Shown here in pieces: positions 58,195 to 64,000 of a stretch of 64,000 nucleotides of DNA; the stretch's first letter is position 1; every line of letters begins with the position of its first letter. The stretch covers positions 224,001 to 288,000 of the forward strand of contig CAWKHF010000007.1 of the NCBI GenBank assembly GCA_963849325.1, read 5' to 3'. The DNA comes from an uncultured Planctomycetota bacterium. GTDB lineage: Bacteria > Planctomycetota > Planctomycetia > Gemmatales > Gemmataceae. The notes below the pieces were generated by a model that saw only the letters and a program-made list of their open reading frames with translations, did no database searches and had not been told where the DNA came from. The translations under genes and the position numbers were made by a program.

Positions 58195-59004
58195 ATGAAA
58201 TTCGCGTATGCTCTCCCACGTCGGTGGATGGGCTTCGCCGTCATCCTTGTTGTTCTCACACGCCTCCTGACAGTCGTTCGCGGTGAGGTTTCGGGGAGCG
58301 AGAAGCGGGAAGCCGATGCCAAGCGCGCGGCCGAGATGGTGAATGCAATCGTGAACCGCAATAAGGCGCCCAAGTTGGTGAAGTGGCGAGGCGATATTAC
58401 TTCATGGGCAGCATTCTTCCCCGAAGATCACGATTGGAAGTAGGAGGCGCGAGTTCACAAAGCGATATCTCAACTGGAAAGGGATCAGACCGAAGAGGTC
58501 TGGGAAGAACTGGTGAAACGAACGGGTGATCGGCACTATAGCGAAACGGTCACGAGCGTGAAGACGGGGGATGCGTATATCGAAGATGTCGGGACCATCT
58601 GCGCGTGGCTTGCCCACTCGCGCCTCATCGGTGTGTTCTGGCAGCACTTGCCGCTTAGCCCATTCAAGGATGGCGAGACACTCTCGCTGGATGTCGGTAT
58701 CGGCGATCTATCCAGGTGGCGCGAGCAACGGGCCGCAAAGTCGCTCTACGAGCTACAGATTGAAGTATGCGAGAGAGCGAACAAAGTTCTGGCGAAAGTG
58801 GAGGAGGTTCCGCAAGCGGAGAAGGAGCAGGCGCGGAAAAAGATCGAGGCCGAGATAGTGAAGCTGAAAAAGACCAAACAGCCCGTCCATATTCAGGGTG
58901 GTCACAGTTATCGAGAGCGCGGCGTGTACAACGCCGAACTTGCCAAACGGGTTCGCGACGGAGTCAAGAGCGGTAAGTATGGCCGCTTGGGCATCATCAA
59001 GTAA
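58195..59004 (+). pseudogene. Exported hypothetical protein interrupted by an in-frame TAG at 58441
   Basis: ORFs 58114..58443 and 58513..59004 share a frame; the sequence between them is open. Confidence 0.65.
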
Positions 59005-59102
59005 GATGATCGCTCGACATCGATGAGGTGTGAGATTCCATCGTCCGCCGCATCGGCTATACTGGTGTGAGATAAAACGGCTGGCCTTGTGAGGATCGAC
59101 TT

Positions 59103-59600
59103 ATGACGGCGGCAGCAGCGGCCCTTGACTTAAGCGTGTTGTACGAGCGGGACGAGACAGCGTGGTTGGAGGCCATGTCGTCCCTGGCGGCCAGCGGGCG
59201 GTACGCCGAGATAGATTACCGGCACCTGAGCGAGTATCTGGCAGACATGGCCAAGCGCGATCGGCGAGAAGTGTTCAGTCGGCTGGTTGTACTCCTGTCC
59301 CATCTGCTGAAATGGGAACATCAACCGGAACGCCGATCCGGTTCGTGGCGGGGCACGATTCGAGAGCAAAGGCGTGAGTTGCGGCAACTGCTGGAGAGTG
59401 GCACCCTGCGTAACCATGCGGAGGCGGTTCGGGCAGACGCTTACGCAGAGGCAAGGCGCCAGGCGGCTGACGAAGCGGAGCTGAGCCTGGACGTGTTTCC
59501 TTCCGAGGACAGGCGGGGCTTGGATGAATTGTTGGCGGAGCCAGACGTTCGAATCCGGCGCTGCAGATGTAACGTTCAATGTCAAGTCCCGTCCCCGTGA
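59103..59600 (+). CDS. DUF29 family protein
   Basis: LYERDETAWL, LLSHLLKWEHQP..RSGSW..TIREQR, AYAEARRQA. Confidence 0.88.
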   Translation: MTAAAAALDLSVLYERDETAWLEAMSSLAASGRYAEIDYRHLSEYLADMAKRDRREVFSRLVVLLSHLLKWEHQPERRSGSWRGTIREQRRELRQLLESGTLRNHAEAVRADAYAEARRQAADEAELSLDVFPSEDRRGLDELLAEPDVRIRRCRCNVQCQVPSP

Positions 59601-61860
59601 TGACGGCCGGTAAGAACGGTTTCCTCTTTCCTGTCTGCGCAATGCGGACGGCTCCGTCCCAAGGGCGTATTCTCTCCACCGACACGGTCAACCGTTCCTT
59701 AACCGTTCCTCTTCTCTGTTGCCGGGCGTGCCGAAGGCTCCAACCCAAACGTCCGCACCAGGTCCAAGGCCGCTTCCCGCAGCGACAAGCCATGCAACGC
59801 CGCCCACAGGTCGATCACGTCCCCCTTCTGACCGCACGTCTTGTCGAAGCACTGGAAGACGTTGGCCTCCAGGTTGACGCTGAAGGTCCGGCCCCGGCCA
59901 TCGCCGCGATGCAGCGGACAGGCACCGCGACGCTGCGGACCATTGCCACGCAAGCGCGTCAACAGACCGAGTTGATCGAGCACCTGCACCAGCGACAGTT
60001 GCGCCTTGACCTGCGCAAAATCCACAAAGGAACTCTCGCCACGGGCGGCGGTCTCGGCTACGCTGTCGGCACAGGCCGCAGTGACCACTTTCTCAGCCGG
60101 CATAGCTTCCGGCTTGTGGCCCGCGGCCTGGCTCGTTGCTGACATACCATTGTCATCGGATGCAGCATTTACTGACGTGGCATTGTCATTCTCCTTGATG
60201 TGGGCCGGCGTCTGCCACGGATAGTGATCGCGGTCAAAAGGCCGGCCCGTTTTCCCAATGGCGAACACCAGATGCAACAGTTTACGCATGGCGTGGCCGA
60301 CGGCGACCGCCTTGTGCTGGGGATGCTTGGCCACGACACGGGTGTACAACGCTCGCACCGCCGGATTGAAGCGGATGGCGCTCAAGGCTGCCATCCACAG
60401 ATAGCGACGCACCAGGTCATTGCCGCGCCGACTCATGACAAAACGCCTGGGCGAACGCGGCTGGCCGTCGCGGTCCACGCCGCTGGAAGCCTCGATGGGC
60501 AAGACACCAAAATAGGCCACCAGCTTACCCGGCGGGGCGAAGCGATCGATGTCGGCGATGAAAGCTGTCAGCACCGCCGCCGTGACGGCGCCGATGCCCG
60601 GGATGGTGTCGAGGTGGTTGGTCTGGGGCAGGGCGTGATAGGCACTAACCAGCAGGGATTCCAGGCGTTTTTGCCGCGCGCCCCTATCGCGTAGTTGGCG
60701 GACCTGGTCGCGGACCAGCTCCTCGACGGCCGCGTCGTTCAGCGAGGCGATGGAGGTCTGTGCTTGTTGCAACAGCGGCGTTGCCAGGTCATCGGGTAGA
60801 TAGAGGATGGCAGCCAGTGTGGTGGGTCTGGCCTGGGCCAGGCGGGCGGCGGTCGGGTAGCGGTGGACCCGTTCGAGGACCCAGCCGGCGGCGATATCCT
60901 TGGTGAGCAGGGCCAGCTCGGGGAAGGTCAAGGCCAGGAGATGATGGAACGGGTTAAGGAGCCGTGTGCGTTGGCGGACGACAGCCTGGAGTCGGCCGGC
61001 GATCTGGCGGAGGATGCGGAGTTCCAGGGACAAGGGTTTGTCCCTTCGGGGTCGCTCGGTCACGGCATAGCGTGCGGCGACGCGGGCTTCGACGGGATCG
61101 GACTTGTGACTGCCGAAGAAGGCGGCGCGATAGTTTTTGTTGCGTTGCGGATCGCCGCAGGAGAGGGTGAGGGCCAGCGGCTGGGCGGCGTTGGCGGGGT
61201 CGGCTGGCGGCGTGGCCTGTTGGTGGAGAAAGTGCAGCAAGTTGTCGGCATAGGGTCCGGCCACGTCCAGACGCACGGCGAAGTCCACGGCGCCGTATCG
61301 TTGGACAAGGGCTTGGAGGCGTTGGCGGAAGAGAGCGTGGCCGGCGGCAGACTCGGGGAAGGACAGCTCGTCAGCAGCGGATTGGAGATCGTCGGTGAGA
61401 AAGACGGCGTAATGTCCGTAGCGGGAGGTGTCGATGCCGACGCCGATGCGTTGCGGTGATTGCGGCGCGGGAGCTGGCTGCTTTTCTAAGCAATGCAAGA
61501 GCAATTTTGGTGAGGATGCCGGCACGCTGGGTGCGCACGGTCATTGCTCCTTTGCGACCCCAATGGTCGCAATTGTTCCGTGCCACCGTCTGACCCACCG
61601 TGCCTACCGACTACCCTGCTCTCGGCGACTCGCCAACTACTCCTCCTCGGCACTTCAACGCTCGGCTCTCTCCAAGCTTTTACCTGGAATGTATCGCCCC
61701 ACGGCGACCATCGAATGGGCTCCCTCGAAGATCACGCCCAACGCCTCGGTCATGGCCCCTCCATACGGAGCTGGATGCTCCTTCCAGGCACGAGCAGCCG
61801 ATGCGGAAGGTGGCCCACCGAGGAGAGGTTGCCGACTTCGTCGTCGCTTCCTCCTTTCGT
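59570..61860 (-). mobile_element. IS110-family element (ends approximate) with a long upstream non-coding region
   Basis: Recombinase gene; outward TTGACA at 59585-59580 near the right end; about 320 nt non-coding upstream. Confidence 0.7.
59699..61544 (-). CDS. IS110-family recombinase with C-terminal CHC2 zinc finger
   Basis: GIDTS, KSDPVEA, TIPGIG..TAA, LVAYFGV.P..ASSG, LRRYLWMAA-like, AMRKLL; CPLH...CFDKTCG. AAGGAG+ATG at 61544 is out of frame by one base. Confidence 0.88.
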
Positions 61861-61863
61861 TGC

Positions 61864-63162
61864 TCAACTCCTCTTGCCCACGCCCGCGTCCAGCGACACC
61901 GTGCTGTCGGCCGTCAGACTTCGATATAACCGCGCCCGGTCGAAGGGCTCGCCGCGGCCGCCGACCCGGTACAACGCCAACGCCAACTTACGCATCACAC
62001 CGGCCAACGCCGGCTTGGCAGCGCCACGCCGTTGCGCCTTTTGCCGCACATACCAACTGCGCACCGGCTCCTGCCGCACCCAACGCAACGCCGCCAGGTA
62101 CAGCCAACGCCGTACCACGCTGGGACCCCGCTTGCTGATCTTGAGCTGGCCCTGCCAGCGACCACTGCTGCGTTCCTTCAGGTTCAGCCCCATCGCCTTG
62201 CGATAGGCCGACCCACAGTGGTAGTCCTGGGGATTGCCCAACGCCACCCACAGCACACACGCCGTCGCCGGGCCGACCACTGCGGCCATCGCCTGGATGA
62301 CCGGCTGCGTTGCCGCCAGTTGCCGCCGCCGCCGGGCCTGCCGATGCTGCTGCAGCCCCTCTTGCACCTGTTGGGCATAACGACGCAGGCGTTCCTCGTC
62401 CCAGCGTCCGACCGGCACGCCCGCCGTCTGCCGGGCGCTGGCTGCCAGCGCCTCGGCCTTGTCCCGGCGCAACAGACCCTTGCCCCAACGGTACAGCCGG
62501 TCTACCGCCTGGATGTCCTCCGCCAAGCCGCCTGGCCCGCCGTAGCGTAGCAGGCAGCGTCGCAGCACCCCGGAGGTCAAGGGCAACAACGCGGTCGCCT
62601 CGGGCCAATGCCGGCTCCAGAGCGCTTCCAGCCGGCCGTACCACAACTGCGTCTGCCGCCTTGGGCCTTCGAGCCACTCGACTTGGTAAGCCAGTTCCTG
62701 TTCGGCCTCGCTGGGCAGGACCAGCGGCCAGGGCCAACTGCGTCCCTGAGCGGCCAATTCGGCCACGATGGCGGCGTCCTTGCCGTCGTGCTGGGACGGG
62801 ACGCCGTCGAAGATCTCGGCGTAATCGGCGGCGGCCTTGGGGCTGATCCGATGCACCATCAAGCCGGCATGCTGGAGAGCGTGGCGAAGGGCATCGCCGT
62901 AGGTGCCGGTCGGCTCCAGGGCGACGACGAGCTGGCGGCCCTGGCCGAGGCGCTGCCGGGCCTGGGTGAGGCAGGGGAGGTCGGCGGGGTTGCGGCAGCG
63001 CCAGGGGCGCTCGAAGTCGTGGTTGTCCCAGCGGAGCACGCAGAGGATGGAGTCCTTGCCGACATCGAGGCCGGCGTGGACGAGCGTCTCGTGCCGCGGG
63101 TGCAGCAGGCGATCCAGGTAGATCGGATTGACAGCGACGGCGCGGTATGCTGTGCTCTTCAT
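61864..63162 (-). CDS. IS110-family recombinase/transposase
   Basis: GLDVGK, ALEPTGTYG, HDGKDA, VG.ATA, ERSSG, KISKRG, RRWLYLAA, MRKLA. Confidence 0.9.
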   Translation of the reverse strand: MKSTAYRAVAVNPIYLDRLLHPRHETLVHAGLDVGKDSILCVLRWDNHDFERPWRCRNPADLPCLTQARQRLGQGRQLVVALEPTGTYGDALRHALQHAGLMVHRISPKAAADYAEIFDGVPSQHDGKDAAIVAELAAQGRSWPWPLVLPSEAEQELAYQVEWLEGPRRQTQLWYGRLEALWSRHWPEATALLPLTSGVLRRCLLRYGGPGGLAEDIQAVDRLYRWGKGLLRRDKAEALAASARQTAGVPVGRWDEERLRRYAQQVQEGLQQHRQARRRRQLAATQPVIQAMAAVVGPATACVLWVALGNPQDYHCGSAYRKAMGLNLKERSSGRWQGQLKISKRGPSVVRRWLYLAALRWVRQEPVRSWYVRQKAQRRGAAKPALAGVMRKLALALYRVGGRGEPFDRARLYRSLTADSTVSLDAGVGKRS

Positions 63163-63249
63163 GGGGATGACCTTTTGTACGTGGACTGGTGATCGTAGCT
63201 GACACCACAATAAACCACTTTCGAGGCATCCCCATTCTTATAGCCCACT

Positions 63250-63460
63250 GAGCTTGGTTGGTCGGCGAGTTCCTCGGCGAGGTTGACGGCTCCGGTGCAG
63301 GCTTCCCGTGCGGCGCCGTGGACGGTGCCGAGTCGTTGGATGGCTTGGTTGATGGCGTCGGCGGAGTCGGGCACGGCGCGGTTGCAGAGGACTTTGCCGG
63401 TGTTGTCCAGGACGCAGAGTTGGACGGCGTGTTGGGAGTAGTCCAGTCCGACGACTCGCC
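63250..63460 (-). pseudogene. N-terminal fragment of a third IS110 recombinase
   Basis: RVVGLDYSQHAVQLCVLDNTGKVL...EACTG. Confidence 0.7.
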
Positions 63461-63720
63461 TTCCCAACGGCTCACGCCGGTGGATGACCGCGAACAACGC
63501 CCGCAACGACTCACGCAAGCGTTCCCCAGAAGCACGCGCCGGAGTGTCCGGCAAGGTCGTCAGGAACTTCACGTCCCCGATCAGGGGGGCCAGGCAGAAC
63601 GGCATCACGACGCCGCACGCACGCAGGTAACGCCGGTAGGCCGAGAAGTAGTCGCAACCCAGCACGCCGTGGAACTCCTTCCCCAACCCCTCCAGCAGCA
63701 CGTCGGCCCGATCAGCGAAG
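63461..63720 (-). pseudogene. IS66-family transposase internal fragment
   Basis: LG.EFHGVLGCDYFSAYRRY...FCLA.LI.DVKFL. Confidence 0.7.
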
Positions 63721-63791
63721 TGCTCATGCGGTCGTCCTTTCCACCGAAGAGGCCGCTTGCGGCCGGGCGCTCGTGCCCGGCCGCAAGCGGA

Positions 63792-64000
63792 TTAGTCCCC
63801 TCCGTGTACCGCATCCTCCTTCGCGAACGGATACGTGGCGAACAGCACGTCACCCAGTCCCAGGTAGGGGTCGTCGAGGTCGGCGTGCAGCACGTCCTTG
63901 TAGATGGGGCGAGTCACCTTCTCCGGCCGCACCAATCCCGCGGTGGCGAGCAGTTCATGGATCTGACGGCGGCGCGTGCGCTCGTTGAGTCGGGTATCTT
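63792..64000 (-). CDS. 3' end of a conserved hypothetical protein (partial)
   Basis: DTRLNERTRRRQIHELL...IYKDVLHADLDDPYLGLG...GGD*, followed by a palindrome. Confidence 0.65.
   Translation of the reverse strand, partial: DTRLNERTRRRQIHELLATAGLVRPEKVTRPIYKDVLHADLDDPYLGLGDVLFATYPFAKEDAVHGGD

Follow-up and report, generated by a model that had tools for sequence, protein, structure and literature searches.

A truncated insertion sequence (IS) in the DNA of an uncultured member of the Gemmataceae (Planctomycetota) belongs, as judged from sequence comparison, to a conserved subfamily of IS110-group bridge recombinases in which a DnaG-type CHC2 zinc-binding domain is tethered to the C-terminus of the enzyme; the subfamily occurs in Gemmataceae and in other soil planctomycetes. 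The stretch analysed, referred to as the window, is 64,000 nucleotides (nt) long and corresponds to positions 224,001 to 288,000 of the forward strand of contig CAWKHF010000007.1 (NCBI GenBank assembly GCA_963849325.1). The element is represented in it by an open reading frame (ORF) of 608 amino acids (aa) on the minus strand (59699..61525), whose first ~17 codons are not native and which codes for an IS110-family recombinase with CHC2 at its C-terminus. The explanation that best accounts for the whole, with a probability of about 0.7, is that of a subfamily of CHC2-tethered bridge recombinases in which the window copy is a relic and the CHC2 domain a portable accessory. To our knowledge, every characterised bridge recombinase consists of the RuvC-like and Tnp domains only. 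No description of a CHC2 domain on a transposase, of the IS110 or any other type, was found in open-access papers and preprints (main texts without supplements), and databases label the IS110+CHC2 proteins simply as 'transposase'. What is new is a CHC2-bearing subfamily of bona fide bridge recombinases, together with a clade of CHC2 domains that recurs on an unrelated transposase.

Architecture and conservation of the recombinase

Pfam profiles and alignments divide the ORF into well-defined parts, all on the minus strand. The RuvC-like DEDD domain (DEDD_Tnp_IS110, PF01548; E 4.7e-12, over the cut-off) spans residues 29-202 (60920..61441) and holds D32, D87, D143 and E146, while the Tnp domain (Transposase_20, PF02371; E 1.4e-19) spans residues 304-394 (60344..60616) and holds the serine of the SSG motif, S348. 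The DnaG-type CHC2 domain (Zn_ribbon_DnaG/CHC2, PF01807; E 4.3e-9, 36.5 bits against a gathering score of 24.9) occupies residues 504-596 (59738..60016), with C536, H539, C559 and C564 as zinc ligands. When solved structures were searched, five distinct sequences were retrieved at E<=1, four of which were the recombinases of IS621 (8wt6_A, E 3.1e-14, residues 303-434) and ISCro4 (9t56_A), matching the Tnp domain, and two primase zinc-binding domains, from Bacillus stearothermophilus (1d0q_A, E 7.9e-5) and from Aquifex (2au3_A), matching the C-terminus. The NCBIfam dnaG model TIGR01391 also covers residues 504-601; however, Pfam and NCBIfam scans of the protein found no TOPRIM/RNA-polymerase or helicase-binding domain, and it is therefore no primase. 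A first-pass annotation of this DNA, made from its letters, had proposed an IS110 recombinase of about 610 aa with a set of characteristic motifs, and all of these (GVGIDT, RLDVAG, KSDPVEA, EASSG, AMRKLL and CPLH...CFDKTC) lie in the 608-aa frame.

The same annotation had read the active site as D-D-D-E, and alignment bears this out: D87 falls on the Glu, and E146 on the Asp, of the adjoining 448-aa IS110 protein (see below) and of two relatives lacking CHC2. Among 22 CHC2-bearing members, D32, D87, D143 and S348 are invariant, as are the four zinc ligands, and position 146 is E in 18, D in three and A in one. The exchanges are conservative Asp/Glu swaps, and from the sequences there is no reason to expect a different chemistry. 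A point that weighs against full membership of the family is the score of the NCBIfam model for IS110 RNA-guided transposases (NF033542), which reached 123.7 bits, below the equivalog cut-off of 140, and aligned with residues 123-429 only; on sequence grounds the protein is a diverged IS110 member rather than an NF033542 equivalog.

An AlphaFold2 model based on a 22-row alignment (mean predicted local distance difference test score, pLDDT, 80.2) is ordered up to about residue 440 and folds well again at residues 500-600 (pLDDT ~90). Residues 440-497 (60035..60208, minus strand), a low-complexity linker of ~58 aa with an AAGHK...KVVTAA motif, remain below a pLDDT of 50 (about 30) and would act as a tether. 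Modelled separately from 47 sequences, residues 495-608 gave a pLDDT of 84.5, and only two of the 341 Foldseek matches to this model had E<=0.001, namely 1d0q_A (E 4.8e-6, TM-scores 0.64/0.70) and 2au3 (E 2.3e-5). The models show an autonomously folded zinc-ribbon domain with flanking helices that is predicted to bind zinc. The first-pass claim of a DnaG-type CHC2 domain behind a flexible linker is supported by the Pfam match, by these two fold matches and by the conservation of the ligands in 22 of 22 members, the domain being CHC2 by sequence and by fold.

Both motifs of the linker are conserved, G469 being nearly invariant and V481 invariant in the 22 members, and the basic tail that closes the protein, (T/P)E(K/Q)R(N/R)G, is conserved as well. 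These linker motifs and the tail may be docking sites for peptides. A relative without CHC2 (P0154) terminates right after the AAGH motif.

A search of 5.8 billion proteins, in which 8000 candidates were scored, yielded 2135 matches at E<=0.001. The best 120 of them are 580-654 aa long and 71-100% identical to the window protein, and 117 of these 120 combine PF01807 with both IS110 domains. An exhaustive search of representatives clustered at 50% identity gave 253 clusters at E<=1e-30. Of the 150 representatives listed, the 50 that reach 400 aa were scanned with Pfam, and PF01807 was present in 26 of them at E<=0.001 (in 23 above the gathering score), including full-length proteins of 561-708 aa with 37-49% identity. 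The accessory-module subfamily that the first-pass annotation had postulated is thus found both among the close homologues and at 37-49% identity. Since full-length relatives that lack CHC2 and end in low-complexity tails also exist (P0146, P0149, P0154, P0157, P0197, P0207, P0208 and P0211), the CHC2 domain marks a subclade. Homologues indicate a native protein length of ~596 aa.

It could be argued that the fusion is a product of read-through or gene calling and that the CHC2 part is really a separate gene, an arrangement that does exist in other IS110 elements, where an IS110 ORF is followed by a CHC2 ORF of ~110 aa. This explanation is extremely improbable: the frame is uninterrupted here and in the 120 best homologues, which come from many samples and do not stop before the linker, the same architecture persists at 37-49% identity, and the linker motifs are conserved across the family.

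Ends, target repeat and predicted bridge RNA

The boundaries of the element were defined on loci from species genomes (12) and from metagenomes (80, kept of 200 tblastn-confirmed stretches). Eleven of the 12 genome loci are labelled planctomycetes. The twelfth, a relative at 65% identity (residues 24-393; L020), lies on a contig binned as an Alcaligenaceae metagenome-assembled genome, which could reflect a binning error or a transfer. Intact elements measure roughly 2.2 kb, and their left end, present in 90 of 93 loci, starts ~250 bp ahead of the ATG. On the left the junction sequence is ...ccGGTCTG-CT-TGTATGTTc (61 loci whose flank is long enough), on the right it is ...CGTTACAT-CT-GCAGCG.cTGGTTCGGC (70 of 76 loci), and empty sites read GGTCTG-CT-GCAGCG. 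Comparison of the junctions with the empty sites identifies CT as the core, as in IS621. The core is common to both junctions, the target is sequence-specific and there is no target duplication. The comparison of copies proposed in the first-pass annotation therefore gave both ends and target: the element is flanked by CCGGTCTG-CT and CT-GCAGCG and occupies the 3′ foot of a hairpin repeat resembling repetitive extragenic palindromic (REP) sequences.

A profile built from reconstructed empty sites detected 22 such REP-like units in the genome of the window (for example at C12:1174068, C5:706058, C4:228782 and C5:64328). Each unit forms a stem of ~10 bp with covarying arms (compare CCGGGGCCGC/GCGGCCCCGG with CCGGGCGGCC/GGCCGCCCGG) around a loop of ~32 nt, and is followed on the 3′ side by GGTCTG-CT-GCAGCG..GGTTCGGC. 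The loop holds GAAA, after which comes GGTCTGCTGCAGCG..GGTTCGGC. Flanks resembling the repeat were also seen in loci of other planctomycete genomes, and at least two different IS110 elements use the REP-like family as a landing site.

Insertion into a repeated palindromic extragenic unit is a property shared with REP-targeting insertion sequences, IS1397 among them; such elements were reportedly treated by Tobes and Pareja in 2006. Those elements carry no CHC2 domain, and the repeat used here is a planctomycete unit with its own stem (~10 bp) and loop (~32 nt).

The alignment of 67 distinct left ends shows that the left end of the subfamily encodes a putative bridge RNA with a target and a donor loop, a region missing from the window copy. 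The predicted fold consists of a 5′ hairpin and two stems, each enclosing an internal loop. In the first, the 5′ side of the loop reads TTTC-GGTCTGCT and the 3′ side TTGCTGCAGA; the second encloses GGTTACATCTTG and TGATCACAAGC. In the first loop, one strand repeats the left target with the core and the other the complement of core plus right target (GGTCTGCT / GCTGCAG); in the second, one strand repeats the terminus of the right end with the core, and the other approximates the complement of the sequence at which the left end starts (GTTACATCT / ATCACAAG). The guides accordingly match a donor GTTACAT-CT-TGTATG and a target CCGGTCTG-CT-GCAGCG. One left end (L023:2667-2891) has 36 extra nt in the RNA, inserted in the distal portion of the module that binds the donor.

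After removal of guide-guide pairs, the 33 remaining pairs of the fold were paired in 95.0% of cases, compared with 89.4% in shuffled alignments (0 of 500 shuffles reached 95.0%), and double-sided changes were present at 19 of the 33, compared with 9.4 in the shuffles; slid controls for the helices were 35-56% paired. The guides also follow the flanks. The left guide (LTG) agrees with the left flank at 431 of 504 positions (63 loci; shuffled mean 399.9) and the right guide (RTG) with the right flank at 399 of 513 (57 loci; shuffled mean 382.8), neither value being equalled in 20000 shuffles, although kinship among loci can inflate the results of these tests. Guide and flank are identical in particular loci, such as L081 (GGCCGGCT), L044 (CTCCAGC) and L018 (CTGCGGC), and loci with guide-flank mismatches are also present. 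Besides kinship, two facts speak against the RNA assignment: at a permissive threshold no Rfam family matched window positions 58500-64000 or the intact left end and remainder of the second copy of the element in this genome (at C4), and the designation 'bridge RNA' depends on the present alignment, with no Rfam model behind it.

Of the 60 two-ended loci, 58 have TTGAC[AT] as a right-end box and TATG.. as a left-end box (TTGACA in 49, TATGTT in 53), and in 57 the two boxes would be separated by 17 nt once the ends are joined. The right end joined to the left end would therefore form a promoter, TTGACA-17 nt-TATGTT, so that RNA and recombinase would both be switched on by excision as a circle, a mechanism described for IS621. 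A promoter formed at the circle junction is described for IS110 elements by Durrant et al. 2024 (PMC11208160). Recombination itself would follow the known bridge mechanism, with D-D-D-E replacing D-E-D-D.

Compared with IS621 and ISCro4 (8wt6, 9t56; PMC11208160), the family shares the RuvC-like and serine-bearing Tnp domains, the CT core, a non-coding left end encoding an RNA with target and donor loops (here predicted), a promoter rebuilt across the junction of right and left ends (here predicted from the sequence) and insertion into a repeated extragenic element. It differs in its C-terminus, which the linker and CHC2 extend by ~170 residues, in its active site (D-D-D-E where those enzymes have D-E-D-D), in a RuvC domain enlarged by an insert of ~20 aa, in the host phylum and in a score below the NCBIfam equivalog cut-off.

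Distribution and role of the CHC2 domain

The genome of the window has three PF01807 matches, namely DnaG (at C12) and the two IS copies. The CHC2 profile found matches in 3 of 401 sampled genomes of the phylum and in 46 of 267 genomes of the order; with the own genome excluded, the latter correspond to 45 of 251 genomes of the own family and 0 of 15 of the other family, and a single genome can contain up to 13 matches. Many of the matches in the order lie in frames of 470-498 aa that encode IS3-like DDE transposases (HTH_21 + rve + rve_3) with CHC2 at the C-terminus (L111, L125-L134 (G607:C1), L112 (G414), L113 and L121 (G438), L119 and L120); such proteins also occur in metagenomes. Their family is large, PF00665 and PF01807 being present together in 120 of the 120 best matches, and a source gives such proteins as 'transposase InsO family' or 'Integrase core domain/CHC2 zinc finger'. 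The complete genome G607 carries an 1818-bp rve+CHC2 element in 10 copies of 96-100% identity, with TG..CA ends, 4-bp target duplications and unrelated flanks. The rve+CHC2 elements thus resemble the IS110+CHC2 ones in carrying a domain of the same CHC2 clade, C-terminal and behind a linker, in the same bacterial family and as multi-copy active elements; they differ in their unrelated catalytic core, their ends, their 4-bp duplications and the absence of a guide RNA and of a REP-like target.

The domain is also found as a separate ORF. In genomes G416 (L115, L153, L154) and G548 (L116, L155, L156), an IS110 ORF of normal size is followed by a CHC2 ORF of ~110 aa, both within a repeated unit of ~2.3 kb present in three copies. 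These elements end in a long non-coding stretch (0.5-0.65 kb), and their RNA may lie in the right end, in a layout of the IS1111 type. Genome G540 (L117, L118) contains ~10 copies of solo CHC2 ORFs (MPAIDF...TEKRNP) lying beside WD40 and FHA/SpoIIE genes, with no adjoining transposase. Among the best 120 matches to a solo CHC2 protein, 116 had an rve-type domain, four had PF01807 only and none had IS110 domains; since IS110 fusions are known to exist, this set is saturated and is no census. A look-up in the ESM Atlas confirmed short CHC2 clusters.

The CHC2 domain of the window protein has the fold, the ligands and the flanking helices of the zinc-binding domain of DnaG primases (PF01807; 1d0q, 2au3), from which it differs in a longer first loop, a C-x4-C second knuckle and LDLW where DnaG has GDVxxF. 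It is closer to rve-borne CHC2 (41% identity, E 4e-21) than to the domain of its own DnaG (31%, E 9e-9). A maximum-likelihood tree was built from 54 domains and 103 columns, few columns that leave many forks open. The 13 DnaG domains were set apart from the rest by a branch with 100/100 support, the 15 rve-borne domains formed one group (94/85), and this group was joined with three solo forms and one IS110-borne form (95/89), nested within the IS110-borne diversity. If the root is placed on the DnaG branch, an outgroup on a long branch, CHC2 would have resided first on IS110 and moved later to the rve transposase.

The domain is autonomous and tethered, keeps its four ligands, and is present on two unrelated cores as well as alone, all of which speaks against its involvement in catalysis or guide-RNA reading; CHC2 would therefore take part neither in catalysis nor in guide-based choice of target. 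The reading tentatively favoured here, judged to fall somewhat short of even odds, is that CHC2 is a portable accessory that binds single-stranded DNA (ssDNA) or a replisome component (primase or helicase), coupling transposition to DNA that is unwound or being replicated.

DnaG zinc-binding domains read ssDNA template triplets. This property, and the location of the IS110+CHC2 insertions at the 3′ foot of a REP-like hairpin with covarying arms, would favour the first-pass proposal that CHC2 helps to select targets by recognising ssDNA or hairpins (REP sequences, attC sites or replication forks). Insertion at the hairpin foot is indeed observed; the proposed role for CHC2 in it is nevertheless decidedly unlikely. 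The same repeat family also serves a 337-aa IS110 of this genome that has no CHC2, the four copies of which end ...CATAGAAGC directly against the left arm (AGCCGGCTCACGCGG) of REP-like units. None of the 20 flanks of the 10 rve+CHC2 copies of G607, which are unrelated and bear the 4-bp duplications, matched the REP-like profile. The guide loops covary with the flanks and thereby already explain target choice, and no link of IS110+CHC2 elements to attC was seen. Ordinary IS110 elements also target REP sequences according to a work cited by Durrant et al. (2024).

A regulatory function through protein-protein contacts, whereby CHC2 would multimerise or autoinhibit the transposase and the solo ORFs would act as trans regulators, fits the disordered tether, the service of the domain to two unrelated catalytic cores and the occurrence of solo CHC2 ORFs in many copies, some of them away from transposase genes. 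Truncated transposase products act as trans regulators in other IS families. The fold is, however, that of a zinc ribbon that binds nucleic acid, and none of its four ligands has been lost; the protein-protein function is considered unlikely. Binding of other nucleic acids is a further alternative.

In its most explicit form, the favoured coupling to unwound or replicating DNA would mean that a primase-derived module is traded among IS110 elements, IS3-like DDE elements and stand-alone ORFs, and mimics the primase domain at the replisome or on lagging-strand ssDNA, tying transposition to replication forks; stated so specifically, the proposal is speculative and rather unlikely to hold in full. 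The 10 rve+CHC2 copies of G607 lend it no support, six of them being co-directional with replication, that is, with no orientation bias (the origin was assumed to be at dnaA and the number is small). If such a host-coupling module were real, bridge recombinases could be boosted naturally by an accessory DNA- or replisome-binding domain. Bridge recombinases are under development as programmable genome-writing tools, and a natural subfamily of hundreds of variants offers a ready test of whether an accessory contact with nucleic acid or the replisome alters efficiency, target access or host dependence. The presence of the CHC2 clade on a DDE transposase, and as a separate gene in IS110 elements, points to a step common to different transposition chemistries in bacteria with large genomes, one that has become accessible to direct study.

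Large serine recombinases also combine a catalytic serine with an accessory C-terminal zinc ribbon, although the zinc ribbon is of another family and the recombinase has another fold.

The window copy and its surroundings

Two parts of the element survive in the window, the reading frame from roughly codon 6 onwards and the right end (together 59565..61473, minus strand), as delimited by homology to the second copy of the element in the genome (C4 copy, L002; 89% nucleotide identity) and to at least 11 loci elsewhere. Homology at the DNA level to the C4 copy and to the foreign loci spans only positions ~61474 to ~59559 of the window. When L002 and five loci of other genomes were examined, all six aligned over ~300 conserved bases farther upstream, including the true start (...CCCATGCTACCACAAC...). 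A contig assembled from sequencing run X1 is identical to window positions 61342-61473 and then continues into the native ATG region; since it leaves the window sequence at 61473, the break lies between 61474 and 61473. An AGCC microhomology considered for the deletion junction was dropped once this contig had placed the breakpoint at 61473/61474.

Upstream of the break, the minus strand supplies a read-in N-terminus (61474..61525) made up of a GTG start and 17 codons of flanking DNA (the end of a 250-bp unit plus 2 nt), which replaces the native M-L-P-Q-H. The first-pass annotation had placed the gene at 59699-61544. The end at 59699 stands, but 61544 is an ATG in another frame and the frame opens at GTG 61525; even this GTG is not native, homology beginning at 61473 and the real ATG being absent. 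The 250-bp unit abutting the truncation point (61476..61725, minus strand) is 99.6% identical to C5:64069-64318, and that twin directly precedes an empty copy of the target repeat of the element. On the other side, the non-coding right end (59565..59698, minus strand) contains TTGACA at 59585-59580, which would be the -35 half of the predicted circle-junction promoter, and ends ...CGTTACAT-CT, the core CT being at 59566-59565; straight after the core comes the right half of the REP-like target (GCAGCGCCGGATTCGAAC; 59547..59564, minus strand).

Alignment with intact elements thus shows that the window copy lacks the left end, the putative bridge RNA, the -10 box, the start codon and the first ~5 codons, and it therefore should be able neither to move nor to guide itself. 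Its history would have been that the element inserted in a repeat unit beside the 250-bp unit, after which a deletion of ~330 bp took the left half-repeat, the left end and ~5 codons. The C4 copy keeps both ends, the RNA region and the ATG, and its left end has no other match anywhere in the genome; its ORF, however, is split over three frames. With one copy truncated and the other frameshifted, neither looks autonomous. The frameshifts could be sequencing errors, which would count against this conclusion. At most, the window protein would act in trans on the second copy. In annotation, the window gene is better recorded as a 5′-truncated relic without guide RNA than as an active gene.

The truncation could also be apparent, the result of an assembly misjoin at a locus where an intact element is really present. 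No contig of runs X1, X3, X21 and X22 (X22 gave none) bridges the junction at 61473-61476, a point against the relic interpretation; moreover, X1 shows the identical N-terminal region joined to a native left end, and the region is crowded with repeats. Nonetheless, the window contig is 695 kb long in an assembly of only 14 contigs, the foreign side is a discrete 250-bp unit whose 99.6% identical twin adjoins an empty target at another site, as is to be expected of a genuine local history, and X1 has no cover of the flanking unit and need not hold this organism. A misjoin is considered improbable, and the window copy is taken as a relic.

Remnants of other copies were seen elsewhere in the genome: a repeat unit at C12:1471922 carries only the last ~17 nt of a right end (CATTGAACGTTACAT-CT-GCAGCG), and a solo right-end fragment of 123 bp, 78-85% identical, lies at C6:48314-48438.

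Directly upstream of the relic is the second IS110 ORF (61864-63210, minus strand), of 448 aa, with PF01548 and PF02371, the canonical D-E-D-D and a single copy in the genome. The 250-bp unit (61476-61725, ending ...TTAGAAAAGC) is probably the right-end terminus of this adjoining element. A third IS110 fragment, an N-terminal DEDD piece (63159-63701, minus strand, and 63260-63454), is 87% identical to the 337-aa IS110, copies of which lie at C7:539019, C5:65820, C5:714601 and C12:958807, and is preceded by a weak IS66-type match. This end of the window is thus a pile-up of IS110 elements. On the opposite strand, a DUF29 gene (59103-59600, plus strand; E 7e-35) runs with its last 11 codons into the right end of the IS, which places the element at the very 3′ end of that gene.

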